This document shows, in pieces, positions 332 through 16,249 of a DNA stretch of 16,616 nucleotides. The position numbers and the translations under genes were made by a program. A model generated the notes under the pieces. It had not been told where the DNA came from. It searched no databases and saw only the letters and a list, made by a program, of their open reading frames with translations. Each line of letters begins with the position of its first letter. Position 1 is the first letter of the stretch. The DNA lies in assembly GCA_038883795.1 (NCBI GenBank), contig JAVZLK010000035.1, positions 1 to 16,616 of the forward strand, read 5' to 3'. The stretch comes from Candidatus Bathyarchaeia archaeon (GTDB lineage Archaea; Thermoproteota; Bathyarchaeia; Bathyarchaeales; Bathycorpusculaceae).

Positions 332-343
332 AAATAGCGACGG

Positions 344-368
344 ATGGAGATATCTCCCGCAAAATCCC
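344..368 (+). repeat. Conserved element-end motif, copy 1 (candidate integrase arm or accessory site)
   Basis: ATGGAGATATCTCCCGCAAAATCCC matches the reverse complement of 16218..16241 at 22 of 25 positions. It lies 12 nt inside the att core and is followed by a T-tract. Confidence 0.8.
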
Positions 369-529
369 CTCTTTTTCTATTCACAACATTTTTGAAAGTT
401 TAATTTTTGTTTTTTATTTTATAGCACAAACAGAAACAGAGAATGGAATAACGCATCCCTTAAGATTAAGTTTAGTTTTCTCGAGTTTAGATAATGTTAG
501 TGATCTATGAGTTAGAATGTAATGACTGT

Positions 530-1074
530 TCACGTAGACATATAGATGCCTAACGTTACATTTGCATTTAACTGGACAGCGATAAAATCTGGTAATCGCA
601 CGAAGCTAAAGAATCCTATCCATAACTTTAGAGCTACAACCTGATATGTTTTTACTGTGAGTTATAAGTGTTATAAACAATGTAGCGGTCTTGCCACTAA
701 AAGCCACCATTAGGTACACTCCATCCAATACCTATTGATGCGTTGCCGCCAACATCTAGTGCAATTGTTATTCGTTCATAGCCTTCTACATTGAAGCAAC
801 GCCAAACTGAAGGTACTCCTCCGGGAAGGGCGACGTGAAATCTTTCGCCGTACATATATGTTGTGTGAATTATTTTTACGTTTTTTGTTGAGTTTCCTCT
901 TGTACCGAATGCCGAAACCGCCATAACTGTGTCTGTCATGCTTATTTCTCCATTATCGTCGTAGTCAAGCCATGGATCATTCCTGACAATTTGCTGCATA
1001 GACACCGAAGAGAAAGCCAAAGTTAACAGGATGGAGCTGATCAAAATTGTAACTGCAAGCTGTTTCCTATTCAT
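530..1074 (-). pseudogene. Secreted protein with a single dockerin/EF-hand-like loop, probably disrupted
   Basis: Signal peptide (MNRKQLAVTILISSILLTLAFSS) and loop DPWLDYDDNGEISMTD..AFGT. The ORF stops at TAG 697..699, but plausible coding continues (WQDRYIVYNTYN), then after a frameshift near 660 reads TVKTYQVV...NVTLGIYMST to TGA 530..532. Confidence 0.55.
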
Positions 1075-1152
1075 AAGGCTTTATCACTTTTTCCTTCTAA
1101 TCTATCATTTTCAATCATCTTTAAAAAAGAAAAAGGAAGTGTTGAAAAATGT

Positions 1153-3333
1153 TTAAGGTGAAGATGGAGGCGGCGGCGGTGGTGGCTGCCATGGCGGGCT
1201 TGTTTTTCCGAAGTATTTGCAGACGAAGCCTAGGTCTTTGGCGTCTACTTTGCGGTCGTTGTTGACGTCTGCTCTGAAGCACCATCTTGGGTGCATGTTT
1301 GGGCATGGAGTGGAGCCGAAGGCTTTGCCTACTACACCAATATCTTTGGCATCTACTTTGCCGTCATAGTTGGTGTCGCATGGTAAATAGTGGCATATCG
1401 GCTGTGGCGGCGTAATGTCGTATAATGCGTGGGGGACATAATACCATTTCCATAGGTTGTAGGCGTATATTCCGCGAAATACCGGATTATAATACCAATC
1501 TACTACCCAGTCTCGTTCCCAATGACGTCTCAGCGGTTGGCTTATTGGCACGCTTGGACAATCCTCGACAGCAAGCAACTGAATATTAAGGTATATTAGG
1601 GCCCTCTCCAATCCATCTTTTACTTTAACACCTTTCTCTATAAGTTCATCCATTGTTGGGTTACAATATCCCTGATAAGCAGCCATCCCCATTTTACTAT
1701 GATAGAAATTGCTAGCAAAGTCGTGTGGATCTGCATAGCAAAATGTATATCCGAAAATAAAGAGCGGAGCCCATTTATTTTTTATCGCCCTGAAATATTC
1801 TGGAATAGGTAAGGCTACAATATTAACATGGAACTTTGGATTAAGCGCTTCAATGTTTTCTTTAATGATCTCTGCAGCTATTCTTCTCGGCTCATTTCCC
1901 GTATTATACAGTATTGTTATTGTGAAGCCTGTCCGCCACACGCTTGCCGCTTGAAATTCCTCTATAGCCTTTGTTAGGTTGTAGGTGTAGCCTTGCACTG
2001 GAGCGTAGTAAGGCAAGCATGGGACGATAGCTGTTGGAGGTGCTATAGCCTCACCTGCATAGGCTTGCTGTAGAAATCTTTGATAGTCGAATGCGTAGGC
2101 AAAGCCTTTCCTAATATGCGAGTAGTTAAAGAAGTCTCTTGGAATACCATCCTCGCTCCACCATCCTGGAGGATATATTATACCATAAGGGGTTTCTGGA
2201 TTAACATCAAAAACATAAAATATGGCTTCCACGGCAAGTTCAGGCAGTGGATACATAAATCTCACTCCTGGTTTCTGATAAAATTCAGTTGCGCTAATAC
2301 CTGGTATATCGATTGATCCGTTAAGGAACCCTTGAATAATTTCTTCCTTTGTCAAGCCCCATTTTACAGTGAAGGATGTAACCCAACCAGCCGGTTTGGT
2401 GCCAAAACATGCAGGGAAGTCCGCTGGCCATCCTCTCCAGTAATCATAGTTTATAACAACCCTCCAGTATCTCTCCGGTTCGGATATCGTATCTAACATG
2501 AATGGCCCTGTCCCACACATAACTGGGTATGGTTCGTCTAGAGGAGATGTTGGCAAGTGATGGTAATTTATCCAATCAGTATAGTCGCCCCATTCGCCAC
2601 CCCATTCCTTCCGGTTAAGCCATCCGATCACGTATTCGTTTATCCAAGCTTTGCTCAATATGCTTGAGTATGGCTGGCATAAAATCTGTAGGAATGGCGG
2701 ATATATTGCTGGGAAAACAAAGTTGAACCAGACATGAGTAGCATTTGACTCAACAGCGTGATCTATGGCCTTTCCAACGTTAATAATGCCCTCAGGTGTG
2801 CTGAGGTTAAATTGTGGACCATATTTTATGAGGTCTTCAGCTCCGGAAGCGTTTAGGAGAGGGGTGTAAATAGTCCACGCTAGCCCTTCATCGTAAACCA
2901 TGACACGCTCAAAAGTGTACTCAACATCCTCAGGTTTAAGCGGATAGTAATGCAATTCAATGTCACGGAAGTACACTCCAGTCCTTATTTCAAAGATGTA
3001 CCTATAGAACCACGGCAACCCTTCAGGACTAACGCTTCCTGTAATGTTCTCAACAACCCATTTTGTCGCAAGCTGAGGCATAATATGATCGGATGTAACC
3101 CTTTCGCCGTCATAGAACAACAAAGTCTCATAGATATTAAAAATTAGCTCAGCACTTGCATCATCAAAACACCGCGCTGGATCAACCGTTTCAGGCCCAT
3201 CAATGGTTCCCTTAATGAGATGGTAGACCTCATTAATTGGAGGAAATGCATACGCCGGAATAATGCTAAAAACGTTTAGGCTTACTGTTATGACAGTTAT
3301 CCAAAAAATACCCACCAACAATTTTCTCCTCAT
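1153..3333 (-). CDS. ABC transporter substrate-binding protein (family 5, DppA/OppA-like) with C-terminal dockerin-like domain and poly-Pro tail, 726 aa
   Basis: Motifs GPETVDPA, NIYETLL, PQLATKW, PEDVEYTFER, GTGPF, IRKGFAYAFD and YADPHDF. Duplicated D-x-N-x-D-x-KVDAKD loops at the C-terminus. The ATG at 3333 follows GGGAGGAG and starts a signal peptide, so it is preferred over 3546. Confidence 0.92.
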   Translation of the reverse strand: MRRKLLVGIFWITVITVSLNVFSIIPAYAFPPINEVYHLIKGTIDGPETVDPARCFDDASAELIFNIYETLLFYDGERVTSDHIMPQLATKWVVENITGSVSPEGLPWFYRYIFEIRTGVYFRDIELHYYPLKPEDVEYTFERVMVYDEGLAWTIYTPLLNASGAEDLIKYGPQFNLSTPEGIINVGKAIDHAVESNATHVWFNFVFPAIYPPFLQILCQPYSSILSKAWINEYVIGWLNRKEWGGEWGDYTDWINYHHLPTSPLDEPYPVMCGTGPFMLDTISEPERYWRVVINYDYWRGWPADFPACFGTKPAGWVTSFTVKWGLTKEEIIQGFLNGSIDIPGISATEFYQKPGVRFMYPLPELAVEAIFYVFDVNPETPYGIIYPPGWWSEDGIPRDFFNYSHIRKGFAYAFDYQRFLQQAYAGEAIAPPTAIVPCLPYYAPVQGYTYNLTKAIEEFQAASVWRTGFTITILYNTGNEPRRIAAEIIKENIEALNPKFHVNIVALPIPEYFRAIKNKWAPLFIFGYTFCYADPHDFASNFYHSKMGMAAYQGYCNPTMDELIEKGVKVKDGLERALIYLNIQLLAVEDCPSVPISQPLRRHWERDWVVDWYYNPVFRGIYAYNLWKWYYVPHALYDITPPQPICHYLPCDTNYDGKVDAKDIGVVGKAFGSTPCPNMHPRWCFRADVNNDRKVDAKDLGFVCKYFGKTSPPWQPPPPPPPSSP

Positions 3334-3778
3334 TTCTCCTCCCAATAATAATGAGAACTTAAAAGAGAATATAAATTTTTCATGAAAATTTTCGTGTAAA
3401 AGGAAGGCGAGAATAGTTACCTTTAAGTTGCCAACTAGAAGAGGGGAGGGCTGAAGTTTAAGCCTTATCTTAAGGGTTTTCATGATCTTCAGTACGGAAA
3501 ATTTAGCAACAATTGAAAGTGGTGTTTGACTGCCCCCAGTTATCATCGTGGAAATGAAAATAGCTGAATCAAAAATATTAAAGAATGGCTTAAAAACGGC
3601 AAATATAAGCGAAAGACCACCACTTCAATTTTCATGAAGCTTTAGCACTCGAGCCGATTATTTCAAACATAATTTGCATGTGGTTTATAGTGAAATATCT
3701 TGGCGATTATCGTGGAAAAACCCTCATCCACGTTTTGGCTCAATTATAGTAAAACAGGTAAGTTGAAGTTATATGTAG

Positions 3779-4006
3779 TTATATTGAGTAAAATGATAAA
3801 ATTCTGCGCCTTATTCTTCTACGATTAAGCCTGTAACTCGCAAATATTTTGGAAGGCTGACTATCTGGGATTCTTAAATGTCCTGAAGGCAGCTTTATAC
3901 ACGCTATTAAGCCCTTCTTAATCCACCTGTATATGGTTTGGTCTGTCACGCCCAGCATATGCGCAACTTGCCTAACCTTATAGTAGGAAGGGTAACGTCT
4001 ATCCAT
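3779..4006 (-). CDS. Excisionase-like (MerR/HTH_17-type) helix-turn-helix protein
   Basis: YKVRQVAHMLGVTDQTIYRWIKKGLIACIKLPSGHLRIP is the typical Xis-like HTH-plus-wing pattern. Confidence 0.85.
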   Translation of the reverse strand: MDRRYPSYYKVRQVAHMLGVTDQTIYRWIKKGLIACIKLPSGHLRIPDSQPSKIFASYRLNRRRIRRRILSFYSI

Positions 4007-4142
4007 TCGATCTTCTAGGTAATATGGGTTTAACCTTCATTTAAGCTTTAAACGCATCTAAAACGCCTTTAAGCTTCAAATTTAAGCCTTTTCCGCGCGA
4101 AGCTTATATTTTCATGCTTCTTTAACGTTAAATTGGATAAAT

Positions 4143-4415
4143 ATGCCCTCTAGGAGGATACATGAGCATTTGGATATGCTGCTTTTCGGCAAACGTTACA
4201 GTTGGCTCCATAGGTGGATGGATGAGCCATGGAGAAGCCGAGGCAAAAAACATAGGCAATTGCGCCATGATCCGCAAAAAACACCAATGCAAGCCTTTGT
4301 CCTCTCTAGTGGAGACTGGAAAGCCTACATATCAGCATTATGCCACATCATGTTAGATAAACTTTCAATAAATCCTGCTGCTGTCGAATTGTTGTACTTC
4401 ATAATAAAGCATTAA
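4143..4415 (+). CDS. Small His/Asp-rich hypothetical protein, probably metal-binding
   Basis: 90 aa with HEH, HRWMD, HRQLRHD and HIMLD motifs. Divergent from the HTH gene, with an AT-rich promoter-like region upstream. Confidence 0.7.
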   Translation: MPSRRIHEHLDMLLFGKRYSWLHRWMDEPWRSRGKKHRQLRHDPQKTPMQAFVLSSGDWKAYISALCHIMLDKLSINPAAVELLYFIIKH

Positions 4416-4535
4416 AAACCTTGATCCCTTATGCCATTAGAATAATTAGAATACATTCACGAAGCTCTTCAAAAGCGGAGGTAGGATATAAGGCTGAGGT
4501 TCCTGAAGCGTTACATTTTACCATAAAATTTTTAA

Positions 4536-4610
4536 CCCCAAACCCAAACCCAACCCCGCTCGTTCTCTTTTTCTTTCTCCCCGCTCGCACGCTCGCTCGC
4601 AAGCTCGCCA
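4536..4610 (-). repeat. G-quadruplex-forming tract plus clustered GCTCG repeats
   Basis: The minus strand of 4536..4557 reads GGGGTTGGGTTTGGGTTTGGGG. On the plus strand GCTCG occurs at 4558, 4583, 4591, 4595 and 4603, and CCCCGCTCG occurs at 4554 and 4579. Confidence 0.8.
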
Positions 4611-4613
4611 CAG

Positions 4614-4745
4614 TCACAAGCAAACAAACCTAAGCTTCCATTCAGGCTTTTCGTTTCTCAGGTATTTGGCTAAAAGATAGGCTTCCTCGTTAATGAGGGT
4701 TTCAACTGTTTGGCTTTTCCCATGCTTAATTCTTGGAATATTAAT
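4614..4745 (-). pseudogene. cas1: Probable C-terminal remnant of a solo Cas1/casposase-like endonuclease
   Basis: INIPRIKHGKSQTVETLINEEAYLLAKYLRNEKPEWKLR resembles, from memory, the C-terminal helix of solo Cas1 proteins in Bathyarchaeia/Nitrososphaeria. The upstream part of the ORF overlaps the next gene and looks non-coding. Not verified by search. Confidence 0.6.
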
Positions 4746-4849
4746 GCATATCCACATACCATAACGTTTAATTTTTTGCTGCAACTTATAAAGAATTTTC
4801 GTAAAAAATAAATCTGGAAACCATGGATTAAATCGTGAGGAGAAGGGAA

Positions 4850-6484
4850 ATGAAAGAAATGGCTTATGGAATAATGCTAACAGTATTGTTGCTCGTTGCT
4901 TTCGTATTTCCGATGAATCCAGCATATGCGTCTACTCAAGTAACTTCCTTTAACCCAGCTCTATACAATATTCAGAATATCTCGAGAACTTGGATTGTTA
5001 ACACACCGAATTATAAAGAGGCTATTATAAATATTATTACAACTGAACAGACTTTTGAATTTCATTTTAACATAACTATCATTGAAGATGACTTTGAAAC
5101 AATTTTTAACGTGTCAACGTCATTACCGGATATTGGTCCTGTCTACTTTATTTCAAGATTTCCAGATACTTTGGGAGGTGCACCTTACACTGGTAGGTGT
5201 ACGACTGTTGAAGCGTTTCGGTTGGACATCCCCTCATGGCTTGTCCCAATACTCGAAAGCATTTTAGCAGCTTTAACTTGTGCGTTATTAGTTGCAATAA
5301 TAATTGTAATTGTGGACATGATTCTAGAAATTTTATGTAGTGAAGGTTTAGTTTCAGGTCCACTATGGGACTTTATTGGAAGATTTGGCACAGTTTTACT
5401 TTCTATTCCATGGATTTTCTTGACAGTTTTTCAAGAAAAAAATCCAGATGGTTCGGTGACGTTGTACTTTCCTTACATGTATACGGAAGGAAGCAATTTT
5501 GATTATGCTATTGATTTACTATTTAATTATAACGAATATGCTATTGCAAGCAACATGAGTTGGTGGAGAATTGTGAAACATGTATATCGAGTATTTTGGC
5601 TTGAGTTCATTTGGTTTTCAGCTGAATGGTATGGATTTGTTTACCCTCCTGAAGAGTGGTGTAAACCAACTCCGCCAATTATAATACTTCCACAACCATG
5701 GATTTATAAACCAATGCCATTATTTGTTTATGGTCCGCAACCGCCATTTGTGGGAGACGCTGTAACATTCATTTCAGCGAGCTATTCACCAAATGGAACT
5801 ATAACATACGTGCATTGGTCTTTTGGAGATGGTTATGACGCTGAGGGATTCAATGTTACTCATGTATATGGAAAACCTGGAAAATATGTTGTTACAATGG
5901 ACGTAATTGATAATTGGAATTCAATAGCCACAATTTCATATGTTATAGATGTTCTGTTACCAGCAACAGTTGACATAGAACCTGCATGCCTTATTTTAAA
6001 AACTGGAGGTAACTGGACCGCTGCCTATATCGAGCTTCCAGAAGGCTATAATGTAAGTGATATTAACGTAAACTCGATAATGCTGAACGGCACAGAACCG
6101 GTGGTCCCTACAGCTCCCACCTTATTGGGAGACCATGACCGCGACGGCTTTCCAGACTTGATGGTTTTATTTAATAGAACAGCCGCTGTACAGCTCATAA
6201 TTTCACAGGGCATTATGGTTGGAAATGTGGCAATAACTATAACAGGTCAGCTTGCTGATGGTGCGGGGTTTATGGGAAGCGGCGTTATAAGTGTTAGGAT
6301 GCCAGGAGACCTAAACATGGACGGCATGGTAGACATGAAAGACATTTCCTTAGCAGCCAGAGCTTTCGGTTCATACCCCGGCCATCCAAGATGGAACTAT
6401 GTGGCTGACGAAAACGAAGACGGCATAATAGATATGCGAGATATAGCCTTAACATGCAGAAACTTCGGAAAAACCTACACATGA
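4850..6484 (+). CDS. Secreted or membrane protein with PKD domain and C-terminal dockerin-like domain
   Basis: Signal peptide ending AYA; internal hydrophobic helices; PKD motif VGDAVTF...WSFGDG...VTHVYGKPGKYVVT; dockerin-like GDLNMDGMVDMKDI...ADENEDGIIDMRDI. The ATG at 4850 follows GAGGAGAAGGG; GTG 4835 is an alternative start. Confidence 0.9.
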   Translation: MKEMAYGIMLTVLLLVAFVFPMNPAYASTQVTSFNPALYNIQNISRTWIVNTPNYKEAIINIITTEQTFEFHFNITIIEDDFETIFNVSTSLPDIGPVYFISRFPDTLGGAPYTGRCTTVEAFRLDIPSWLVPILESILAALTCALLVAIIIVIVDMILEILCSEGLVSGPLWDFIGRFGTVLLSIPWIFLTVFQEKNPDGSVTLYFPYMYTEGSNFDYAIDLLFNYNEYAIASNMSWWRIVKHVYRVFWLEFIWFSAEWYGFVYPPEEWCKPTPPIIILPQPWIYKPMPLFVYGPQPPFVGDAVTFISASYSPNGTITYVHWSFGDGYDAEGFNVTHVYGKPGKYVVTMDVIDNWNSIATISYVIDVLLPATVDIEPACLILKTGGNWTAAYIELPEGYNVSDINVNSIMLNGTEPVVPTAPTLLGDHDRDGFPDLMVLFNRTAAVQLIISQGIMVGNVAITITGQLADGAGFMGSGVISVRMPGDLNMDGMVDMKDISLAARAFGSYPGHPRWNYVADENEDGIIDMRDIALTCRNFGKTYT

Positions 6485-6798
6485 AATACTTTTCCAACAC
6501 CCATCTTTTTCTAAAAGCCAGAACGTCAAGAAATGGGCCTTAAACTTAGACCCCTTTTTTATTGTGTATGGTGCAAAATACTTTACCTCTTCTTCTTTAA
6601 TTCTGACAATAATAATTTACTTTATTGCTTCAGGATTTTCGCTTGAAAAAAGGTAAAACTAAATGGTTATCGAAGGAAGAGGCTGATGAATTCAGGAACT
6701 GCGCCAAGAGCAAGCAATTGAGGTAGGCTTAGTATATAACACCTCGCCCGAAAAATTTAAGGTTCATTAAATATATTATCTTTGGTTTGGTTTATGGG

Positions 6799-7677
6799 CT
6801 AATTGTCCGGAACCGGACAGCCAAACACCTTAATAATTAGAGGTCGAATTTCACTTTCTGTTAAGGAATCAACATGTTGTGCTAAAAGTTCAGGTTTAAA
6901 GCCTTTAAAGTTGCTCCATAGGTCATCGACATCTGGTAGGTCTGGAATTTTTAGACCGTTTCTTTCAATTATTTTCATTGAACGTTTGATTATCTCGCAA
7001 ATTTCTTCGAGAAACTTTGGCTTTTCTTTTAACATTAAAATACTAGAAAACAGAATGCTCGATCTTTTCAAGTATGCCTTCATAATGTCAATTGAAGGTG
7101 TACTTAAAAGGTAGTCGATAAGTCTTTGCTTCTCATTCTCATTTAAAATGTTATATAATTCAGCGGGGGAATTTTTAGGCAGCACCACAACACATTTACT
7201 TGGTCTACCACCCCTATCAAGAATTAATCCCGTGAATTTTTTTGGTCTGCCTATCTTTTTTGGTATAAAAACTGGTTTGCCAGAAACATATCCGCGCTTC
7301 AAGCCAAATTCCTTATCATCAAAAAGTTGGATATTAACATTTTCGTAGAAAGATTTCAGAGAAGAATACTCATGTTTAAAAATTCTTATAACTTTATGGA
7401 GTTTAACGCCTGAGGCTTCCGCTATCTCGCTATATGCCCCTCCCCTGCCCAAAAATGCTTCTAAAATCTCGCTAGCAATTAAAACCTTTACTTCATCAGG
7501 CAATTCAAACCGAGCAAACCCTTCTAAATTCTTATTTTCAATTTTTCGATTCAATTCATCGGTTAAAAGCAAAATACAGTTTAAGAATCCAGCAAATATC
7601 CTGGAAGGTAGGTTTTCCACGTTTTTTAAAGATTCGCTGCCTCTAAAGTTCAAAGTTTTACCCTCTCTAACCATCAT
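6799..7677 (-). CDS. Hypothetical protein, possible HTH regulator; true start probably downstream (e.g. TTG 7503)
   Basis: Long open frame with HTH-like YSEIAEASGVKLHKVIRIF. The maximal start leaves no room for divergent promoters. Confidence 0.6.
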   Translation of the reverse strand: MMVREGKTLNFRGSESLKNVENLPSRIFAGFLNCILLLTDELNRKIENKNLEGFARFELPDEVKVLIASEILEAFLGRGGAYSEIAEASGVKLHKVIRIFKHEYSSLKSFYENVNIQLFDDKEFGLKRGYVSGKPVFIPKKIGRPKKFTGLILDRGGRPSKCVVVLPKNSPAELYNILNENEKQRLIDYLLSTPSIDIMKAYLKRSSILFSSILMLKEKPKFLEEICEIIKRSMKIIERNGLKIPDLPDVDDLWSNFKGFKPELLAQHVDSLTESEIRPLIIKVFGCPVPDN

Positions 7678-7689
7678 TAGGTGGCACCT

Positions 7690-7872
7690 ATGGAGGTTAA
7701 AAATTTGACGCCTGTAAAAGTGACTAGGGTCACATCAAATGATCGTTGGCCTTTGATATACATTCCAAAAGAGGCTGTTCAGGAGCTGGGGCTTAAAAAG
7801 GGTCAGCGTGTTCTAATGCTTGTTGACCATTCAATCGGAGCTCTAATCATAAAACCTGTTTTCAAGGAGTGA
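7690..7872 (+). CDS. AbrB/MazE/SpoVT-family DNA-binding protein
   Basis: PLIYIPKEAVQELGLKKGQRV swapped-hairpin signature. AGGTG precedes the ATG at 7690. Confidence 0.85.
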   Translation: MEVKNLTPVKVTRVTSNDRWPLIYIPKEAVQELGLKKGQRVLMLVDHSIGALIIKPVFKE

Positions 7873-7879
7873 ACATTAC

Positions 7880-8560
7880 ATGAATTGTCCATCTGAATCC
7901 AGGATAACCGTAATAAAAAATTGCGACATTGAGCTGCGTTTCCAGATGAGAACTGATGTTTCAGAGGCCCTTTCTAGAAGCATAGGTGAACACGGCGTTT
8001 TGGTTCCTCCCGTAATATTGCAGCTTACAGATGACTTAAAAAGAAAATTTCATACCTCAAAATCGTATGTTTGCATTGACGGACATTCAAGACTCAGCCA
8101 GCTGCCTGAAGATTATGAGGTCGAGTGCCAGATCTTAACGTGGGAACAGCTATTCTGCGATTTTGAGAAATTCTGCCGTAGGGCGGGTGTTGACCCGTTA
8201 AAACTTAAAGAAGACGAGATTATAAAAACCTATATTCTTCGACTTCATGCATGCCGGGAGCCCTTGCCCAAAGATGTGTATGTGAAACAAGCGGAAAAAC
8301 TGAAGGAACTAGGCTTTAGTCTGAGGCAGATTGCTGCTTTCCTCGGCATAGCTAAATCCACATTGCATGACTGGATGCAAAAGAAGCCCCTTGGCAATGA
8401 AGACTTAGAGGGCGAAAGTCGCTTGATAAGGAGGCAGTGCGGTTTTTGTGGCAAGTGGATTCGTCAGGGGGCTAAGCCCATATGGTTTCATCCTGAATGT
8501 CACGATAAGGTCACAATTTTAATTGAAAAGGCTAAAGGAGGTGAAAACAGGAATGGGTGA
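7880..8560 (+). CDS. ParB/Srx-domain protein with HTH and C-terminal Zn finger
   Basis: LSRSIGEHGVLVPPVI...CIDGHSRL (ParB N-terminal motif), GFSLRQIAAFLGIAKSTLHDW (HTH) and CGFC...HPEC. RBS GGAGTGA. Confidence 0.82.
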   Translation: MNCPSESRITVIKNCDIELRFQMRTDVSEALSRSIGEHGVLVPPVILQLTDDLKRKFHTSKSYVCIDGHSRLSQLPEDYEVECQILTWEQLFCDFEKFCRRAGVDPLKLKEDEIIKTYILRLHACREPLPKDVYVKQAEKLKELGFSLRQIAAFLGIAKSTLHDWMQKKPLGNEDLEGESRLIRRQCGFCGKWIRQGAKPIWFHPECHDKVTILIEKAKGGENRNG

Positions 8561-8831
8561 AGAGAAATTACCATTAACTGATGAAGACTTCTTCGGGCTG
8601 GTTGATGTTTTGCTTAAGCGTCCGCCAATACAAAGCCAAAGCATGCCAAACATCAAAATCCTCATCGTGGACCACAATGGACAAGAGTATAGAATAGGCG
8701 TGATAGGCAAAGAAGCCTTTGAATCAGTTAAAAAGCATGGCTACAAGGACAGCGACGGCAAAATACACCTTCAAATTCCCAAGACATGCCTGAGGGAGCA
8801 AGGATGCGGATGGATAAACACTCCGTATTAG
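8553..8831 (+). CDS. Hypothetical protein (element A backbone)
   Basis: GGAGGTGA at 8537..8544 precedes the ATG at 8553, which overlaps the previous stop codon region. Confidence 0.75.
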   Translation: MGEEKLPLTDEDFFGLVDVLLKRPPIQSQSMPNIKILIVDHNGQEYRIGVIGKEAFESVKKHGYKDSDGKIHLQIPKTCLREQGCGWINTPY

Positions 8832-8843
8832 AGGTGCGGTTGA

Positions 8844-9182
8844 GTGGCAGGCAAAGCCCCAGTCTACCTACAACTTGCAAATCTTGAATCATTCATTGAG
8901 GAGCTTAAGCACAGAAGCCTGTCTGAAGCTAGGCTATCGGAATGGATCCAGCGCCGTGACATGTTTGAACGGCGAAAGTTTAGAGTTACAGCCTTAGACC
9001 CATATTATGGTCTAATACTACGCTACGAAAGCGTATATTATCAGGGCTTAGCTGTTGACGGCGAAACTGCAGAGCTTAAAAAATCTAGGGAAGAAGCCAA
9101 AAAGCGCATTACTGAAAGGCTTGAGGCTGAGGGAATACGCCTATTTGAAGGCGAATACCACGCTGGAAAGGCTGAATGGTAA
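8844..9182 (+). CDS. Hypothetical protein (element A backbone)
   Basis: GAGGTG RBS before a GTG start; operon spacing; 112 aa, charged and soluble. Confidence 0.75.
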   Translation: MAGKAPVYLQLANLESFIEELKHRSLSEARLSEWIQRRDMFERRKFRVTALDPYYGLILRYESVYYQGLAVDGETAELKKSREEAKKRITERLEAEGIRLFEGEYHAGKAEW

Positions 9183-9304
9183 AACAAGCAGCCTAGACCC
9201 GTCAATGCTGAAATTTTCATTGTCTACGGGTTGCATTTGGCATCTTTGGGTTGCCATTACAATGGGACTGTCGCTCAATCCTCGCTGATTCGGGGCTGCC
9301 ATGA

Positions 9305-9703
9305 GTGAGAAGCTTTAAAGCCTTAAAAGAGCCTAATTTCTCAAACTGCGACGTTTTCAGGCTTCTCTTTAGAAACCATAAGACCATTCACGCTTCAAGG
9401 CTCCTTTTCGGTTGGATGCTGAATAATGGCGGTTACGCAACACCATCCCAGCTAAGCCAATTCGCATGGAAACTACAAAAAGGTAAGGTTGAGGAAGGCT
9501 ACAATTATCGGCGTTCAAGCCTTTACAGAACAGTTTTGAGGCGCCTCTTGGATTTCGGCTTCATAAACCAACAGCAGATCTACGACAAGGAAACTGGCAA
9601 AATTGTCCAAGCCTACGTTCTAATAAAGCAGTCCATACCAAAACGCGCTCCCCTTGGCGGAGCCAGCTTCTGGAAGCTGGCATGGCACATATGCAAAGCG
9701 TAG
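9305..9703 (+). CDS. Putative winged-helix DNA-binding protein, possibly shortened by a premature TAG
   Basis: TPSQLSQFA...RSSLYRTVLRRLLDFGFI followed by a beta-wing. The frame continues NEQLEKAKG to TAA 9731..9733, just before the integrase ATG. Confidence 0.65.
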   Translation: MRSFKALKEPNFSNCDVFRLLFRNHKTIHASRLLFGWMLNNGGYATPSQLSQFAWKLQKGKVEEGYNYRRSSLYRTVLRRLLDFGFINQQQIYDKETGKIVQAYVLIKQSIPKRAPLGGASFWKLAWHICKA

Positions 9704-9740
9704 AATGAACAACTCGAAAAGGCGAAAGGCTAAGGCGAAC

Positions 9741-10867
9741 ATGACAACGCCAATCCATTGTCCACAGTGCGGTTCAACGCTTTTTTGGAAGGATGGAATG
9801 CGTTATCTATTCGATGGCTCAGCTGTTCAGCGTTATGTTTGCAGAAATTGTGGACACCGCTTCTCTGAGCCGAGCAATAAAATTGAAAAGCAAAACCGCA
9901 AGCCCATACTTTTGGAGAGGGCTCCCTTGACCCTTAAAGCCCAAACAGAAAAGCGGGCTGCGGGAGCCACAGAAAAGCCAAGCATTGCGGAGCTTCAGGG
10001 AAAAATCGTTGAGTTTCTATGGTGGATGAAGAAGCAAGGATATAAAGAGACAACGATAGCTGGTAAGGAAAAAGGCTTCAGAGGCTTGTTAGGCTTGGAG
10101 CCAACCTTTTAGATCCTGAAAGCGTAAAAGAAACAATAGCGAGGCAAAACTGGTGCGATTCAGGAAAGGAAACAACGGCATACGCTTATGACCTCTTTGC
10201 AAAATACGCTGGGATTAAATGGGAGAGACCAACCTACAAGCCTCCGAGAAAGCTTCCATTCATACCACATGAAAGGGAGATTGACGACCTAATAGCTGGC
10301 TGTAATAATAAACATGTGGCAGCGTTCCTTCAAATTGCAAAGGAAACTGGAGCAAGGGCTGGAGAAATCTTCGATCTAAAATGGACGGACATAGACTTTG
10401 AAAGGAAAACGTTGTCGATAACCCCTGAGAAGGGAAGCGATCCTAGAATCTTGAGGATTTCAGACAAGCTAATAGCCATGCTTCAAAACATGCCAAAAAA
10501 GAGTGAAAGGGTATTCAGCAATTACAAAAGCTTAAAAACCTTAAGCTTAGCCTTCCAGCGCTATCGCAAAAGAATAGCCTTCAGGCTTGGAAATCCGAGA
10601 CTTCTAAGGATAAGCTTCCACACGCTTCGCCATTGGAAAGCCACAATGGAGTATCATAGAACAAAAGACATACTTCACGTAATGCAGATGCTCGGACAAG
10701 AAACATCAAAAACACGCTGATATATACCCAGCTTGTCAAATTTGAAGGTGAAGACGAGTACATTTGCAGGGCGGCTAAAACAGTTGAACAAGCTTAGCCC
10801 TAATCGAGGCTGGATTTGAATACGTCTGCGACATTGACGGAATCAAGCTGTTTAGAAAACGAAGTAG
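9741..10867 (+). pseudogene. int: Tyrosine integrase with N-terminal Zn ribbon (IntA), four apparent 1-nt deletions
   Basis: CPQCGS...CRNCG, then KLPFIP, ETGAR, PEKGS, FHTLRHWKAT, IYTQL and GFEYV...KLFRKR, collinear with IntB. Frame breaks near 10068, 10698, 10794 and 10862. Confidence 0.9.
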
Positions 10868-10897
10868 CTTACACCTGCTGGGGTTTTATCCAAAGGA

Positions 10898-10976
10898 TGG
10901 TGGGGTAGCTGGGATTTGAACCCAGGATCGCCAGCGCCCCAGGCTGGTATCCTAGACCAAGCTAGACGACTACCCC
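10898..10976 (-). tRNA. tRNA-Pro, anticodon GGG, intron-less, CCA encoded
   Basis: GGGGTAG-TC-GTC TAGCTTGGTCTAG GAT-A-CCAGC CTGGGGC GCTGG-CGATC-CTGGG TTCAAAT CCCAG-CTACCCC-A-CCA folds as a full cloverleaf. Confidence 0.97.
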
Positions 10977-10998
10977 ATTTTCGTGGACGGGTACCCTG

Positions 10999-12228
10999 CT
11001 ATTTTCGTTTTCTAAAAAGTTTGATGTTGTTTATTTCTGTTACGTACTCAAAGCCTGCCTCTATAAGTTGGGTTGCTTCTTCTATGGTTTTTGCTGCTTT
11101 GCAGATGTATTCGTCTGTTTTGAAATTGACTAGTTGGGTGTATTTTAGGGTGTTTTCGATTCTTTTGTGGCCTAGGCATTGCATTACGTGTAGGATGTCT
11201 TTTGTTTTGGCGTATTCCATGGTGGCTTTCCAATGTCTTAAAGTGTGGAAATGTATTTGCAGTAGTCTCGGGTTTCCTAGTTTGTAGGCTATTCTTTTGC
11301 GTTGGGTTGTGAATGTTTTTCTTAGATAGAAGGTGTTTTTGTATGTGAAAACTTTGAGGTCTTTCTTTGGTAGGTTGTTAAGCATGCTTGCAAGTTTTCC
11401 CGATATTTTGAATATTCTTGGGTTGCTTCCTTTTTCTGGCGTTATTCTAATAGTGTTTGTTGCAAAGTCTATGTCTGTCCATTTTAGGTTAAAGGCTTCT
11501 CCGCATCTGGCGCCTGTTTCTTTCAGGAGTTGTAGGAATGTTGCTATTTGGTGGCTGCAGCCTGCTATTAGCTGGTCTATTTCTTCCTCTGTTGGTATGA
11601 AGGGCAGTTTTTGGGGAACTTTGTATTTTGGCATTGTTAGGTTTATTCCATATGTTAGCTTTAGGAAGAGTTTGTAGGCTTTGAAGGCTTGATTTTTTCT
11701 GGCTGGGCTCCATTTTTCTTGTTTGGCTATTATTTCTTTGACATTTTCGGGGTCGGATAGGTTGGCGCCACGTTTATGCAAAGTTTCTAGAATGTAGGTG
11801 TAGCCGGCTACTGTTGCTTCTGAATAGGCTTCTTTTTTGAGTTTCCACATGAATTCTATGACTTTTCCTTTAACGTCGGCGGCTGTATGCTCTGTGGCCC
11901 CCGCAGCCCATTTTTCGCTTTCTTTTGTGGCTGCGGCCAAATTTTTCGCCCCCAAAGGCTGGGAGGCGCATATTTGGCGGTGATAGGCTATGGCTTCCAT
12001 GCTTTTTAAAATCTGCGTATGAATTTTCTGAACTTGTTTAGAGCCCTTTGAGGTGTTGAGGCTGGCTGGCTTTTGTCTGTTGGGTTCTGAAAAGCGGTAG
12101 CCACAGTTCCTACAAATATAACGTTGTACTTGGCCTGTCGCAGTGTAGCGGATTCCATCCTTCCAAAGTTTTTGGGAGCCGCATTCTGGACAGGCCAGTG
12201 GCTTGTTTTTGGCTTGCCGTGAAGCCAA
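10999..12228 (-). CDS. int: Tyrosine recombinase/integrase with N-terminal Zn ribbon (IntB), 409 aa
   Basis: Complete catalytic set: R (TGAR), K (PEKG), HxxR (HTLR), H (LGH), Y (KYTQ). N-terminal CPEC...CRNC. TTG start with upstream GAGGGT. Confidence 0.95.
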   Translation of the reverse strand: MASRQAKNKPLACPECGSQKLWKDGIRYTATGQVQRYICRNCGYRFSEPNRQKPASLNTSKGSKQVQKIHTQILKSMEAIAYHRQICASQPLGAKNLAAATKESEKWAAGATEHTAADVKGKVIEFMWKLKKEAYSEATVAGYTYILETLHKRGANLSDPENVKEIIAKQEKWSPARKNQAFKAYKLFLKLTYGINLTMPKYKVPQKLPFIPTEEEIDQLIAGCSHQIATFLQLLKETGARCGEAFNLKWTDIDFATNTIRITPEKGSNPRIFKISGKLASMLNNLPKKDLKVFTYKNTFYLRKTFTTQRKRIAYKLGNPRLLQIHFHTLRHWKATMEYAKTKDILHVMQCLGHKRIENTLKYTQLVNFKTDEYICKAAKTIEEATQLIEAGFEYVTEINNIKLFRKRK

Positions 12229-12236
12229 TAGCGGGC

Positions 12237-12473
12237 CTACCCTCTAGGTTTTTGGTGCTGTTGCCAGTCGCCTAGCACGCCTTTTTGCACTGCGGCCATA
12301 AGTTGGTCTGCTTTTACGTAGATGGCTTTCCAGTGGTAGGCGTCGCAGTCCATCATGAAGGCTATTAGCACATAGCCTATGACTTCGTATTGTCTGTTTG
12401 CCCATTCAAAGTCGTCTATGTGCAATCCGCCTACAATGAGAATGTCAATTTTAGGCTTGTCATCAACTGTCAA
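12237..12473 (-). CDS. Hypothetical protein upstream of IntB
   Basis: 78 aa; GAGGGGG before a TTG start; the stop lies 8 nt before the IntB start. Confidence 0.6.
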   Translation of the reverse strand: MTVDDKPKIDILIVGGLHIDDFEWANRQYEVIGYVLIAFMMDCDAYHWKAIYVKADQLMAAVQKGVLGDWQQHQKPRG

Positions 12474-12756
12474 AATTGATAGCCCCCTCTAGATTTTTCG
12501 CCTGGAAAATAGACACTGCCAGAAAACCATTTTCGCCTCCCCCTCTAGTCTTTCGGGGCGATGTCATGGTTGTGGCTGTTTCGGCTTAACAAATACACTA
12601 CCCCTTCTCTAGTTTTGGCTGAAAGCGGAAAGGCTGTGCATTCTGGTTTTTCGGGTCTGTTACTTCCATTTTTGAAAAGGAGAGTGAAAGAGAGAAAGAG
12701 AAGAAGAGAAAATGCATAGGCATAAGCACACACGCACACATACACACGTTAGAAAG

Positions 12757-13158
12757 CTATTGCTGGTTATCCTCGGAGCTCGGCAGCGTCTCAAGGAGTT
12801 CCTGGTAAAGTTTTAGGGCTTTCTCTCTAACAGCCGGGTCTTTAATGTTATCTATGCGCTTGAGCAACGGTATAACAGACCTTTCTTTTTCCTCTTGGGC
12901 TATTATATGTTTCATGGCTGACCGCTGCTTTTCTGTGAGGTGATAACGCGCATAGGCATCAGCCTTAATAATACCTGCGAGTGTTAACTCCTTTACCATT
13001 TCGCTGGTGGTTTTGAACTTTAACCCAAACACTGTCAGCATATACGCTTGAATCTGTGTTATTGAAACGCCATGCGGCTCATTCAAATTAATGAAGGTTA
13101 AAAGCTCCATCATACGACTATGCCGCTGAGTGGCACCGTCAGGAACGTCTGCACTCAA
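12757..13158 (-). CDS. Winged-helix DNA-binding protein
   Basis: ELLTFI...GVSITQIQ...TTSEMVKELTLAGIIK...RYHLT wHTH pattern; GGAGGT RBS. Confidence 0.78.
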   Translation of the reverse strand: MSADVPDGATQRHSRMMELLTFINLNEPHGVSITQIQAYMLTVFGLKFKTTSEMVKELTLAGIIKADAYARYHLTEKQRSAMKHIIAQEEKERSVIPLLKRIDNIKDPAVREKALKLYQELLETLPSSEDNQQ

Positions 13159-13187
13159 CGCGCTTACCTCCTATAAATGCTTCAGTT

Positions 13188-13388
13188 TCAACCTTGACCT
13201 TGACTATCAATACCCAGAGAAGGCTTAAACCCTAAACGTTCAAGCTCTCGGCGGACAGCTTCCCGGATAAACTCTGTTTTGGTTCTATGCCAAACCCGAC
13301 CAACAGCCGCCTCCAAAGCGTCGTCCAAACTCTTTGGAACAGCAACATTCCAAAACCGCACACCCCGACCGCTTTGTTCCTCACCCAA
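13188..13388 (-). CDS. Ribbon-helix-helix (CopG/Arc-like) regulator
   Basis: WNVAVPKSLDDALEAAV...TKTEFIREAVRRELERL. GGAGGTG lies 6 nt before TTG 13388; the longer N-terminus in the ORF track is just translated repeat DNA. Confidence 0.85.
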   Translation of the reverse strand: MGEEQSGRGVRFWNVAVPKSLDDALEAAVGRVWHRTKTEFIREAVRRELERLGFKPSLGIDSQGQG

Positions 13389-13448
13389 CACCAACACCTC
13401 CACGCCAGCGCTTAAACAAACAACAGAAAACACAAAACAAAAACCAAA

Positions 13449-13508
13449 TTGGACCATACATTGGCCTACACAAGGCACAACAAAATGGCCAAAACAGTGG
13501 CCCACAAC
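13449..13508. promoter_or_regulatory. Five degenerate 12-bp tandem repeats (operator or iteron array)
   Basis: TTGGACCATACA / TTGGCCTACACA / AGGCACAACAAA / ATGGCCAAAACA / GTGGCCCACAAC, located between the divergent RHH and methyltransferase genes. Confidence 0.6.
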
Positions 13509-13582
13509 ACAAAAAATGAGCATATAACATGCAAAAGCAACACTTAATTAGCAATTCTTATAATAGGACACTGGAGAAAGTG

Positions 13583-14467
13583 ATGGAAGCAGTCCAGAAC
13601 AAGAGAAAAATTATTAACAAACTTAACGAGTTAAGCGGCAGAGAATGGATTAAATTCACCAAAACATGGTTTATCCATCGCCCAGCCCCTAGAGAAAACG
13701 CCAAACTTTTACACCCAGCAGCTTTCCCTGAATCACTTGCAAAGGAGTTTATCGAATTTTTCACAAAAAGAGGACAGCTAGTTCTAGACCCCTTCCTGGG
13801 TACAGGTAGCACACTAATTGCTTGCATTGAAAGCGAAAGATCCGGTATAGGTGTGGAAGTTGTAAAAAAATGGGCTGATATTGCTGAAATGAGAGTAAAA
13901 AATCTATTAAGCCAAAGAAAAGGCTCAGAATATTTGCTAAATTCAATGGGATTAACCCCCGAAAAACTGCTAATAAAGGTTATCCACGGAGACTCTAGAA
14001 GATTATGTGAGATATGGAAAGAAAACAATTTTCCACCAGTAGACTACTGCATTACAAGTCCGCCCTACTGGAATCAGCTCAAAAGAGATTATCTCAGGCA
14101 AAAGGAGAGAAAGGAAAAAGGTTTCGAAACAAAATACAGCGAAGACCCCAACGACATAGGCAACATCGATGATTATAATGAATTCCTGAAGGCGCTGAAG
14201 CAAATATTTAATGAAGTTTATAAGATAACCAAAAACGGCGGCTATTTAACAGTCATAACAAATAACGTATTCTACAATGAAAGATTATACCCCTTAGCCT
14301 TTGATACTCTAAAAATTTTAAGCGAAGAACCCTATGCATGGGTTCCAAAAGACGAGAAAATTTGGCTGCAAGACGACAAACCTCTACTTCCCTTAGGTAT
14401 ATACAACGTATGGATAGGAAATAGAGCACATCAATATTGTCTAATTTTCAGAAAAGAAAAGGGATGA
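13583..14467 (+). CDS. Amino-DNA methyltransferase, probably N4-cytosine
   Basis: HPAAFP, then SAM-binding VLDPFLGTGST, then catalytic ITSPPYW. The ATG at 13583 follows GGAG; 13529 is an alternative start. Confidence 0.92.
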   Translation: MEAVQNKRKIINKLNELSGREWIKFTKTWFIHRPAPRENAKLLHPAAFPESLAKEFIEFFTKRGQLVLDPFLGTGSTLIACIESERSGIGVEVVKKWADIAEMRVKNLLSQRKGSEYLLNSMGLTPEKLLIKVIHGDSRRLCEIWKENNFPPVDYCITSPPYWNQLKRDYLRQKERKEKGFETKYSEDPNDIGNIDDYNEFLKALKQIFNEVYKITKNGGYLTVITNNVFYNERLYPLAFDTLKILSEEPYAWVPKDEKIWLQDDKPLLPLGIYNVWIGNRAHQYCLIFRKEKG

Positions 14468-14470
14468 AAC

Positions 14471-15619
14471 TTGGGGGTCCAATACACTCTAACTGGTGAA
14501 GAGCTGGTAAGTGCTCTTTCGCATGATGAAATGGCATTTGAAGTTGCTCGCACAATCAGAGATTTGGTTTTAAAAGGTATAGACCCTTGGAAAACATTAT
14601 ATAAACCAACAATAGTCATTACATCATCCTCAGAATGGCCAGAGCCAGATTTTGTATTTGATGACAGAAAAGGAATAACTTACAGCTTTGAATTTAAGCC
14701 TCCTGAACAAGTCAGGCGAGAATACCTACTAGGAATAGGACAAGCCGTAGCTTATCTGACACATTTCTCTCATTCAACCATAATTCTTCCCAAAACGGCT
14801 GAAAATTTCAACATAGCTGATTATATCAGTAGCATTGTACGTAGCCTACCGCTAAAAATAGGCGTAATAGCCTATGAACCTACCGACATCAAACAATTAG
14901 AAGTTCTCGTTCCATATCCCCCTCAACCCGTAGGCCCCCTAGAAAGAAAGGCGGCCATAGGAAAAGTTTTCTGGGCATTCTGGATGGATGAATCAATACA
15001 CGAATTTTACCTCATGCTAAAACGCTCATATGAGCTAAGAAACGAGCCAGGAGATATAAAAGAAAAAGTGTTCAAAGATATCTTTGCTTTAATGCAGCAA
15101 GGACAGACATATGCGAATGATGGTACTCCTAGAAGGTTGGGAGGCCGCTTAAAGTTTTCCTCATGGTTTCTAAATTACCGCTTACCCTTCCTTCACTGCG
15201 GATTATGGAGCCTAGACGGAAAACCAACCTTAACCGGAACAAGAATCCTCTCCATCGGAGACACATACGGATGGGACTCAGAAGAATTCAGAAACGCCCT
15301 AGCAAAAGCATACCTAACCAACGGAAAACACTTACTCCTACTAAAATACATATGGGACATCCAAATAAGCATGATAAACAACAACATCAAACACCAAACC
15401 CAAAACGAATACCTAAACAAAATGGCAGACGAACTCATGAAAAGAGGATTCGGAAGAGCCCACAGAGGCGTAAGAAGAAACCTCCAAGCCATGATATCAC
15501 TATGGGGAGGCGGATTCAAAATCCTAAAAACCAGAAAAAACAGTTACTACTTCAGAGGCTTTGGCCTAGTCCCAGACTGGGGCAAAATAACCACAATCCT
15601 CCAAACACAATACTGGTAA
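14471..15619 (+). CDS. Putative restriction endonuclease, PD-(D/E)xK fold
   Basis: PEPD-x13-EFK followed by GIGQAVAY (QxxxY helix). Starts 3 nt after the methyltransferase stop. Confidence 0.75.
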   Translation: MGVQYTLTGEELVSALSHDEMAFEVARTIRDLVLKGIDPWKTLYKPTIVITSSSEWPEPDFVFDDRKGITYSFEFKPPEQVRREYLLGIGQAVAYLTHFSHSTIILPKTAENFNIADYISSIVRSLPLKIGVIAYEPTDIKQLEVLVPYPPQPVGPLERKAAIGKVFWAFWMDESIHEFYLMLKRSYELRNEPGDIKEKVFKDIFALMQQGQTYANDGTPRRLGGRLKFSSWFLNYRLPFLHCGLWSLDGKPTLTGTRILSIGDTYGWDSEEFRNALAKAYLTNGKHLLLLKYIWDIQISMINNNIKHQTQNEYLNKMADELMKRGFGRAHRGVRRNLQAMISLWGGGFKILKTRKNSYYFRGFGLVPDWGKITTILQTQYW

Positions 15620-15678
15620 AAAGAAAAGGGGAATAATCGCACTTTCAAATCTTTATTAGGCTTTAAGAATACATCTTG

Positions 15679-15867
15679 TCATTCTTTATAGATGTAAACT
15701 AACAACCATCCGAACTGCAAAAGAACACCTATTGCAACAAGACCCCACCCTGCGTTTACCATACCGTTGTTGCCTAGTAAACTGCCAAAGAAAAGCAAAA
15801 CGAATCCAAGCGCTAAACAGATCGCTGGCGGGCTTCTAGCAATAACGTCCACCAACACGTCGAGCAT
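15679..15867 (-). CDS. Small two-helix membrane protein
   Basis: 62 aa with two hydrophobic segments; GGAGGG RBS before the ATG. Confidence 0.7.
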   Translation of the reverse strand: MLDVLVDVIARSPPAICLALGFVLLFFGSLLGNNGMVNAGWGLVAIGVLLQFGWLLVYIYKE

Positions 15868-16217
15868 TACACTACCCTCCTAGGGTAACGAGTACCCGCA
15901 TTGATTGGGACGGAAAAAGCTTAAATTTAAATGCCTCTTTATCTAACAAGCGCTGACTCGCAGATGACGATGAGATTGGTTGGCCCAACCAATCGAGTAT
16001 TCTCATTTTACCCCGAGTTTTCCGAGACGATAATACACAAACTTATTAGATTTTTCAACAAGAATTATTAAAAAAGAAGATAAATCAGAGCATACGTATG
16101 TTGTTTCTCATAACTGAACATTATAGAAGAAGGCTAAATTGCGCTTTTTATGCACAAAAGGCTCTTAAAAGGCCGATTTTATAAAAAATCAAATAAAAAA
16201 GATAGAATAAAAAAAAT

Positions 16218-16241
16218 GGGATTTGCGGGGGATTTCTCCAT
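16218..16241 (-). repeat. Conserved element-end motif, copy 2
   Basis: The minus strand reads ATGGAGAAATCCCCCGCAAATCCC followed by a T-tract, 8 nt inside the att core. Inverted relative to 344..368. Confidence 0.8.
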
Positions 16242-16249
16242 TTCAGTTT

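Follow-up and report, generated by a model that had tools for sequence, protein, structure and literature searches.

We analysed a 16,616-nucleotide (nt) stretch of a Candidatus Bathyarchaeia archaeon genome (contig JAVZLK010000035.1; hereafter the window), in which two integrated elements, A and B, flank a single intact tRNA-Pro(GGG) gene. Each element ends in a displaced piece of this tRNA, and directly inside each piece lies a copy of a 24–25-bp motif followed by a run of T. An earlier reading of the letters alone (the sequence-only reading) had proposed this motif as an arm-type binding site for the N-terminal domain of the integrase or for a directionality factor. The motif is a family-wide signature just inside the far end of small tRNA-integrating elements of Bathyarchaeia.

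Two elements and two motif copies at one tRNA-Pro(GGG)

The features that define the two elements are, in window coordinates:

10898..10976, minus strand: intact tRNA-Pro(GGG), the regenerated target common to both elements (ARAGORN; Rfam tRNA, 58.2 bits)
About 332..10897: element A, an insertion at the tRNA 3′ end
305..331, minus strand: displaced 3′ piece of tRNA-Pro(GGG), the distal attachment (att) core of element A; 27 nt comprising T-arm, acceptor strand and CCA
332..343, no strand: core-to-motif spacer of element A, 12 nt
344..368, plus strand: motif copy 1, ATGGAGATATCTCCCGCAAAATCCC, in which the dyad GGAGATATCTCC (346..357) is followed by CGCAAAA and a C-run
369..382, plus strand: T-run CTCTTTTTCTATTC after copy 1, ending in TATTC
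9750..10862, plus strand: IntA, an integrase gene broken into four frame pieces and directed at the tRNA 3′ end
About 10977..16249: element B, an insertion at the tRNA 5′ end
10999..12228, minus strand: IntB, an intact 409-aa tyrosine integrase, pointing toward the tRNA 5′ end
16217..16205, minus strand: T-run ATTTTTTTTATTC after copy 2, ending in TATTC
16218..16241, minus strand: motif copy 2, ATGGAGAAATCCCCCGCAAATCCC, with the dyad GGAGAAATCCCC, then CGCAAA and TCCC
16242..16249, no strand: core-to-motif spacer of element B, 8 nt
16250..16273, minus strand: displaced 5′ piece of tRNA-Pro(GGG), the distal att core of element B; 24 nt comprising acceptor strand, D-stem and D-loop

The block at 305..331 matches the final 27 nt of the intact tRNA at 100% identity, and element A therefore entered the tRNA at its 3′ end; likewise, the 24-nt copy of the tRNA 5′ end at 16250..16273 places the entry of element B at the 5′ end. 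In both cases the integrase gene (int) adjoins the regenerated tRNA and the displaced piece lies at the opposite end, with IntA and IntB aimed at tRNA-Pro(GGG) from opposite sides. The two integrases are homologous (60% identity across the catalytic part). By tblastn, IntA falls into pieces 9750–10064, 10076–10702, 10699–10794 and 10791–10862 in different frames, and two of its open reading frame (ORF) fragments have Pfam matches. Split tRNA halves of the Nanoarchaeum type were considered for the displaced pieces and rejected: the 24- and 27-nt pieces have no anticodon arm, an intact tRNA-Pro lies between them, and next to pieces of other tRNAs the motif is found as a single copy.

The two motif copies agree in 22 of 25 columns and differ by two substitutions and a 1-nt gap, and a repeat search of the window returned them as an inverted repeat of 33 nt (79%). 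Within the window the word GGNGANNTCNCC is confined to these two copies, where shuffles predict 0.27 occurrences; the shuffles and a reversed-pattern control (below) exclude chance as the source of the match. The description given by the sequence-only reading held for the 22/25 match, the spacers of 12 and 8 nt from the tRNA-identical blocks, the TATTC endings of both T-runs and the palindrome in copy 1. It held also for the lack of shared cargo, since elements A and B have only the integrase in common (all-against-all BLASTP, ORFs of at least 45 aa). The motif lies inside each element, 8–12 nt from the displaced tRNA piece; neither the intact tRNA nor the host flanks contain it. A search of the window for further copies or half-sites, the int-proximal arm included, found none.

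Both insertions are polymorphic and carried by a minority of the population. In run X1, which contains most of the window, word depth is ~230–330 in the host flanks (1..554 and 16067..16616) and ~10–45 inside the elements (555..10526 and 11081..16066), and a contig joint (10926>16245) runs from the tRNA straight into the right flank, skipping element B. This low interior depth, together with the joint, is the basis for the assignment. Among the contig-joint rows listed for four DNA runs, there was no circle junction. The public runs listed as containing the window included no RNA run.

A conserved module at displaced tRNA pieces across Bathyarchaeia

Searched with a 20-nt pattern at up to two mismatches, the 2.18-Mb, 81-contig genome of the window (G000) gave eight matches, against none for the reversed control. 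Looser and tail-anchored scans raised the total to 13 motif sites (contigs C35 (twice), C26, C63, C20, C25, C49, C41, C12, C4, C19, C8 and C32), 11 of which lie directly inside an orphan tRNA end piece. The pieces beside the motif are Pro 5′ and 3′, Arg 5′, Cys 3′ (twice), Leu 3′, Ser 5′ (three) and Phe-like 3′. A motif-blind survey of orphan tRNA pieces in the same genome found eight with the motif and two to four without.

The signature extends well beyond this genome. At least one match (up to one mismatch) was present in 151 of 201 sampled genomes of the order, with a maximum of 22 per genome; the reversed control never exceeded two per genome. Loci returned from this search numbered 30, with 33 matches. 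About 24 of these read as genuine, meaning that a C-run plus a T-run follow the motif, and the remainder stand in coding contexts. With a tail-anchored pattern, 30 of 301 genomes of the phylum had matches, 18 of them in the window's order (counting G000) and four in one family of another class (f25), the latter with up to 12 matches each. Three f25 genomes searched for integrases (G239, G253 and G303) have 7–20 integrase-family matches each, with the motif present, and two genomes from other orders of the window's class (G202 and G264) have one integrase match each and no motif match. The motif follows the element, not the host, and its co-occurrence with integrases in f25 suggests that the elements have spread between classes. 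The sequence-only reading had put forward a search of the genome and of Bathyarchaeia for co-occurrence with tRNA fragments, and had named a dispersed host repeat unrelated to att sites as the contrary outcome. Co-occurrence with orphan tRNA pieces was found; the motif is dispersed, but it is located at att sites. The view that the motif is retained under constraint as part of att-site architecture is thus borne out by a family-wide island at tRNA pieces.

Among 55 loci with the exact 18-mer in IMG/VR, three (L106, L110 and L129) read as genuine and the rest lie in unrelated, mostly coding contexts; the motif elements are not typical catalogued viruses. Leucine-like tRNA pieces stand beside the motif in L106 and L110 (by eye), as does a Leu piece on C41 of G000. 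At C41:410-1318 and in L110, an N-terminally truncated integrase beside tRNA-Asn abuts the tRNA-Leu 3′ piece with its motif, and this truncated-integrase/tRNA-Asn/tRNA-Leu stack is conserved across two unrelated records.

Most loci of relatives were fetched with the motif as bait; a further 20 loci were chosen by integrase matches alone, without reference to the motif. Eight contained a direct repeat of at least 13 nt between the integrase-side target and the far side, and in seven of these eight the motif or a variant lies within 75 nt inside the far repeat; the eighth repeat is an A/T-rich 14-mer and probably a chance match. The other 12 loci had no repeat in the DNA covered. Two distant integrases (41–43% identity to IntB), which belong to the window's own host family, use non-tRNA repeats and carry diverged motifs in which the dyad is kept and the tail changed. 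One genome, G199, has exactly the layout of the window: tRNA-Pro(GGG) stands between a 13.5-kb 5′-type and a 12.1-kb 3′-type element, both of which carry a distal motif and an intact integrase, and its tRNA-Phe is flanked in this way too. Insertion of one integrase family at either tRNA end, giving convergent int genes around tRNA-Pro(GGG) or tRNA-Phe, is seen in the window (332..16249), on C63 of G000, at L066/L067 (G199:C8), at L068/L069 (G199:C1) and at L046. Passages of PMC6563490 describe 5′-end insertion as considerably rarer.

The consensus of the module reads (R)T-GGnGA-nn-TCnCC-CGCAAA, then 1–3 variable letters, a C-run of 3–5, 0–2 letters and a T-run of 5–8, together an island of ~31 nt in which a T-run of this length follows every genuine copy. 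Across 41 sites anchored on GG, information content is 1.3–1.8 bits per position over ~30 nt and 0.05–0.2 bits on both sides, a contrast that is partly forced by the fetching. Variation is found at positions 3 and 10, mirror images of each other, and at the two central letters. Positions 3 and 10 show no covariation (A-C in 13, A-T in 11 and A-A in 6 of 43), and the pattern of letters therefore points to a dyad recognised as DNA by a protein and away from an RNA hairpin.

Two other readings of the island were tried and rejected. Coding was suggested by an inward frame, RTG-GAG-..-TCN-CCC-GCA, and an outward frame, TTT-GCG-GGN-GAY-RTC-TCC (FAGD[IV]S), which put variable letters at wobble-like places. 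Against it stand length changes of 1–3 nt between CAAA and the C-run and the lack of a conserved start codon; no ORF of at least 60 aa crosses copy 1, and an ORF across copy 2 (16150..16419) was taken as spurious. An RNA hairpin was dismissed on the mirror positions, which do not covary; Rfam at E ≤ 1 returned only the tRNA plus one sub-threshold small RNA match elsewhere.

Polarity and spacing are constant. The order core, motif, T-run is identical beside every tRNA piece; the core consists of 20–29 nt identical to one tRNA end, and the spacer to the motif is 7–14 nt across the family. At 13 3′-type sites, the distance from the T-loop word to GG is 10 nt in eight, 11 nt in four and 16 nt in one, the outlier being copy 1 of the window; its odd spacing coincides with the broken IntA in element A. 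At 5′-type sites, GG starts ~32–37 nt from tRNA position 1 (by eye).

On the int side of the core, after the integrase stop, both elements of the window carry a degenerate direct copy of the outer 11–15 nt of the core, which we term the pseudo-core:

10877..10891, plus strand: pseudo-core of element A, GCTGGGGTTTTATCC, aligned with the core word GCTGGGATTTGAACC (local alignment, shuffle p=0.018)
10986..10996, minus strand: pseudo-core of element B, GGGTACCCGTC, aligned with the core GGGTAGTCGTC (local alignment, shuffle p=0.04)

The pseudo-core of B lies directly after the IntB stop codon. Six of nine elements have a pseudo-core at shuffle p ≤ 0.05; it stands ~20 nt to the int side of the core and was also seen in L059, L066, L068, C63 and G502. 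It may be a further integrase site. An uninterrupted run of integrase C-terminus, core and motif occurs at four places (C25 of G000, L042, G253:C2 and the IMG/VR record G502), the last with a degenerate core copy in addition. These four sites resemble attP, the attachment site of a free element, and are either free forms or tandem junctions.

The integrase family and its zinc ribbon

The integrase is the sole protein common to all 10 delimited elements; in five of them a large protein lies beside int. IntB matches PF00589 with an E-value of 1.4e-20, and its R241, K266, H328, R331, H354 and Y363 (the R-K-H-R-H-Y set) are invariant in 14 sequences. With its catalytic set and ORF intact beside the tRNA, IntB is of the unsplit pNOB8/XerA-like type; IntA, in four frame pieces, is not.

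An AlphaFold2 model of IntB (mean predicted local distance difference test (pLDDT) score 76.8) places a zinc ribbon at aa 9–50 (pLDDT about 80), followed at aa 51–115 by a disordered tether of ~65 residues (pLDDT <50). The body, from aa 116 on, is modelled as a helical core-binding domain and the catalytic domain, with a small alpha/beta domain at the C-terminus. IntB is thus predicted to have a separate N-terminal domain of DNA-binding type joined by a linker. Solved archaeal XerA structures match the integrase body only (profile positions 125–391). By mean pairwise identity, the ribbon (0.58) is as conserved as the catalytic domain (0.58), ahead of the core-binding domain (0.44) and the tether (0.28). 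As judged from these alignments, a conserved head with a variable core reader would fit a conserved motif with variable cores. In the same model, the conserved C-terminal tail of IntB (10999..11045; ...EAGFEYV..KLFRKRK*) forms the small alpha/beta domain. The last IntB codons are A/T-rich and lie 25–45 nt upstream of the regenerated tRNA, where 5′-type elements must supply the tRNA promoter.

Free-standing genes of 45–70 aa encode only the zinc ribbon and are paralogous to the integrase N-terminal domain. They lie 50–150 nt inward of motif and T-run, are co-directional and have ribosome-binding-like words. Such genes occur in at least five genomes (G000, G183, G482, G165 and G027), at the following loci:

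C4:25143-25277 of G000: free ribbon gene
C19:29595-29729 of G000: free ribbon gene
L136, L137, L138 and L159: free ribbon genes

Other small proteins are less widely shared. The directionality factor of the sequence-only reading was to be a small protein of element A:

3779..4006, minus strand: HTH_17/MerR-type small protein of element A (Pfam HTH_17, 5e-11)

This protein has no homologue in the other nine elements (phmmer, E ≤ 0.05) and is an unlikely partner of the motif, being present in one of 10 elements. A ribbon-helix-helix (RHH) protein of element B occurs in three of 10. Neither BLASTP nor phmmer found a small protein family common to all 10 elements, a search that fast-evolving small factors could escape. 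The idea that intact IntB might act on defective element A gains no support, because the cores differ: A uses the T-arm and 3′ end, B the D-arm and 5′ end, and an accessory motif in common would not by itself confer recognition of the core.

The cargo of element A includes a 797-aa SBP_bac_5 protein (1153..3546) and a 549-aa PKD protein (4835..6484), each with dockerin type I domains (Pfam); this is cellulosome-style cargo on an archaeal mobile element. In element B, 13529..15619 holds a 312-aa N6_N4 DNA methylase followed by a 382-aa ORF without a Pfam match, which may together be a restriction-modification pair.

Possible roles of the module

We tentatively propose, at a little less than an even chance, that the elements are moved by one tyrosine integrase family and that the motif is the conserved arm module of attP. 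From the anatomy, conservation, polarity, spacing, integrase-family linkage and domain layout described above we infer what binds the motif and what the T-run does. The module would be a single accessory site on the attP arm, bound by the integrase zinc ribbon and joined to a T-run terminator, a reading that we favour while holding it to be just short of evenly balanced.

In a free element, the order would be integrase gene, stop codon, degenerate core copy, core, 7–14-nt spacer, motif and T-run, so that integration would leave the motif just inside the displaced tRNA piece and far from the integrase gene. This far-end position would be the same for entry at the 3′ end (element A) and at the 5′ end (element B). 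The N-terminal zinc ribbon, hanging by its flexible tether of ~65 residues from the core-binding and catalytic body, would dock on the dyad GGnGA-nn-TCnCC and its CGCAAA/C-run extension. Protomers seated on the core could in this way grip a fixed site that lies some two helical turns away from the crossover, which the inner edge of the identity blocks would put at the T-loop or D-loop. Docking would mark attP and the distal junction as distinct from the bare tRNA target, and the free-standing ribbon paralogues may vie with the integrase for this site or regulate it. Transcripts that run across the core probably end at the T-run, for instance integrase read-through in the free form or transcripts from the orphaned tRNA promoter in 5′-type insertions. 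A wider version, in which this is the first archaeal heterobivalent integrase system, the free ribbons are built-in regulators or directionality factors, and a diversified core reader gives access to either tRNA end, is possible but rather doubtful when taken as a whole.

The proposal of the sequence-only reading, an arm-type site for the integrase N-terminal domain, survives in part. This domain is the best candidate binder, given the integrase shared by 10 of 10 elements, the conserved tethered ribbon and the free paralogues beside the motif. The strict lambda-like sense fails, as there is one composite copy on one arm. Like the arm-type sites of lambda (P1/P2/P′1-3), Tn916 and CTnDOT, the motif is an element-side sequence outside the core that is missing from the chromosomal target and ends in just one of the two junctions, and as in those systems the integrase has an extra N-terminal domain of DNA-binding type on a linker. 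Unlike them, the present system is archaeal and has a single composite site on one arm, 7–14 bp from the identity block, whereas theirs are several, on both arms and tens of bp away. Their N-terminal domain is a small beta-sheet arm-binding fold, in contrast to the tethered zinc ribbon of the bathyarchaeal integrase, and, unlike in arm-type systems, no bending-protein sites were identified in these elements.

The body of the bathyarchaeal integrase resembles the XerA/pNOB8 type (PDB 4a8e and 5hxy; hmmsearch E-values 9e-26 and 3.5e-25, Foldseek top matches), as do an int gene left unsplit by integration and the choice of tRNA genes as targets; it differs in adding the N-terminal zinc ribbon, the tether and the small C-terminal domain. 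The head recalls that of IS1 InsA and IS1595-type transposases, with a CxxC...CxxC ribbon and the word QRY-x-C-x2-C-x-x-F, and a fragment of IntA gives a weak Pfam match to Zn_ribbon_InsA (E 0.0045, below cut-off). Zinc-ribbon heads of transposases read conserved repeats at element ends. Here, unlike there, the ribbon is fused to a tyrosine recombinase, and end-binding is a candidate function.

Several observations count against an integrase-bound accessory site. At the level of genomes the link to the integrase is loose: 12 of the 20 integrase-negative genomes listed have 1–6 pattern matches, and some genomes with 8–9 integrase matches have no motif at up to one mismatch. Variants and chance coding matches account for part of this. 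At about half of the sampled sites (21 of 43), no tRNA piece could be recognised by eye on the outer side, and some of these sites lie between ordinary host genes (ribosomal L3/L4 in L054) or cargo-like genes. Since the motif served as bait for most relatives, part of the conservation within the 18-mer was selected for by the search itself. The elements carry a single copy on one arm only, where classical arm-type sites are multiple and on both arms, and the motif was never seen without the T-run, a transcription-type signal. Two placements look terminator-like, with a second motif tail and T-run 11 nt past the stop codon of the small ribbon gene in L136 and the motif 17 nt past the end of a host-like ModE-type gene in L036/L047. 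Finally, passages of a 2021 review (PMC8371274) state that characterised archaeal integrases need no helper factors.

An unlikely though serious alternative is that the module is a terminator or insulator only and ends transcription crossing the attachment site. It would serve the free element as the integrase terminator, like lambda tI/sib, and the integrated element as a block to transcripts entering from the host or from an orphan tRNA promoter, the conserved letters before the T-run tuning termination or RNA stability. The T-run of 5–8 after each genuine copy, the constant int, core, motif and T-run geometry and the placements in L136 and L036/L047 agree with this, as does the displaced 5′ piece of 5′-type insertions, which keeps its native tRNA promoter aimed into the element. 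Archaeal termination needs only an oligo-T tract, however, and its sufficiency leaves ~24 conserved letters unexplained, along with a dyad whose degenerate positions are mirror images and the 10–11-nt register to the T-loop. With only ~10 copies per genome, ordinary host genes at large do not use the module, and there is no conserved hairpin (positions 3 and 10 without covariation, spacer of 2 nt). The same feature disposes of a retroregulator of the lambda sib/tI type. There too int is followed by attP and then by the signal, and the int 3′ end differs between free and integrated forms; integration separates the signal from int because it lies across attP. The position thus agrees, and the conserved RNA hairpin is missing: here a plain T-run would be the signal and the conserved part is a DNA dyad with a 2-nt centre.

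That the module is instead the promoter or operator of the first inward gene seems improbable. The T-run would be TATA-like and the motif the operator of a regulator, possibly a small zinc-ribbon protein, marking the start of the first transcription unit with no role in recombination. In 18 of 34 sites the nearest inward ORF (at least 70 aa) is co-directional, 14 of these starting within 190 nt, and small ribbon genes with Shine-Dalgarno-like words start 60–90 nt after the T-run; yet a split of 18 to 16 is at chance level. In the window, the first inward ORF of element A is convergent and that of element B starts ~350 nt away. The tRNA promoters of this genome resemble YTTTTAAA/CTTAAAAA, not a C-run with a plain T-run, and a promoter would have no need of a fixed register to the core.

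A site for another protein, be it a directionality factor encoded by the element (the HTH_17 protein at 3779..4006, for example) or a sequence-specific, IHF-like architectural protein of the host, appears similarly improbable. Lambda Xis sites adjoin the core on the arm away from int, and the motif occupies the matching position; element A encodes an excisionase-family HTH protein, and a 12-bp dyad suits a dimeric regulator. Against this, with HTH_17 in one and RHH in three of 10 elements and no small protein common to all, no cognate small factor gene was found to travel with the motif, as an Xis/HTH_17 operator would require. A host factor is disfavoured because the motif accompanies the integrase in another class and gave no match in the two genomes checked from other orders of the window's class (G202 and G264), and diverged integrases within the same host family carry diverged motifs. 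A neutral relic, by which the match would be leftover homology from shared ancestry without function, we consider very improbable: IntA and IntB are homologous, so the element ends could be too, but the island is conserved across the order and in another class while both its flanks are at background, and it is kept where integrases are only 45–65% identical and cargo is unrelated.

Neither full-text literature searches nor passages of PMC8371274 and PMC6563490 gave an account of such a motif. The passages of PMC8371274 report no helper or arm sites for the archaeal integrases characterised so far, and "arm-type" has no occurrence in that review. If the accessory site is real, it would revise the helper-free picture of archaeal integrases for one of the most abundant uncultured archaeal classes, and a short probe with a small domain would make a simple biochemical test system. 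The family also supplies paired 5′-end and 3′-end insertions in one tRNA gene. The ~31-nt signature shows where these elements end on the side away from the integrase, and together with the tRNA piece it can be used to set the limits of mobile DNA, to account for contig breaks and to count insertions in metagenome-derived Bathyarchaeia genomes. Should the heterobivalent reading be true, the 31-nt module would be a universal, searchable end-tag of this mobilome.

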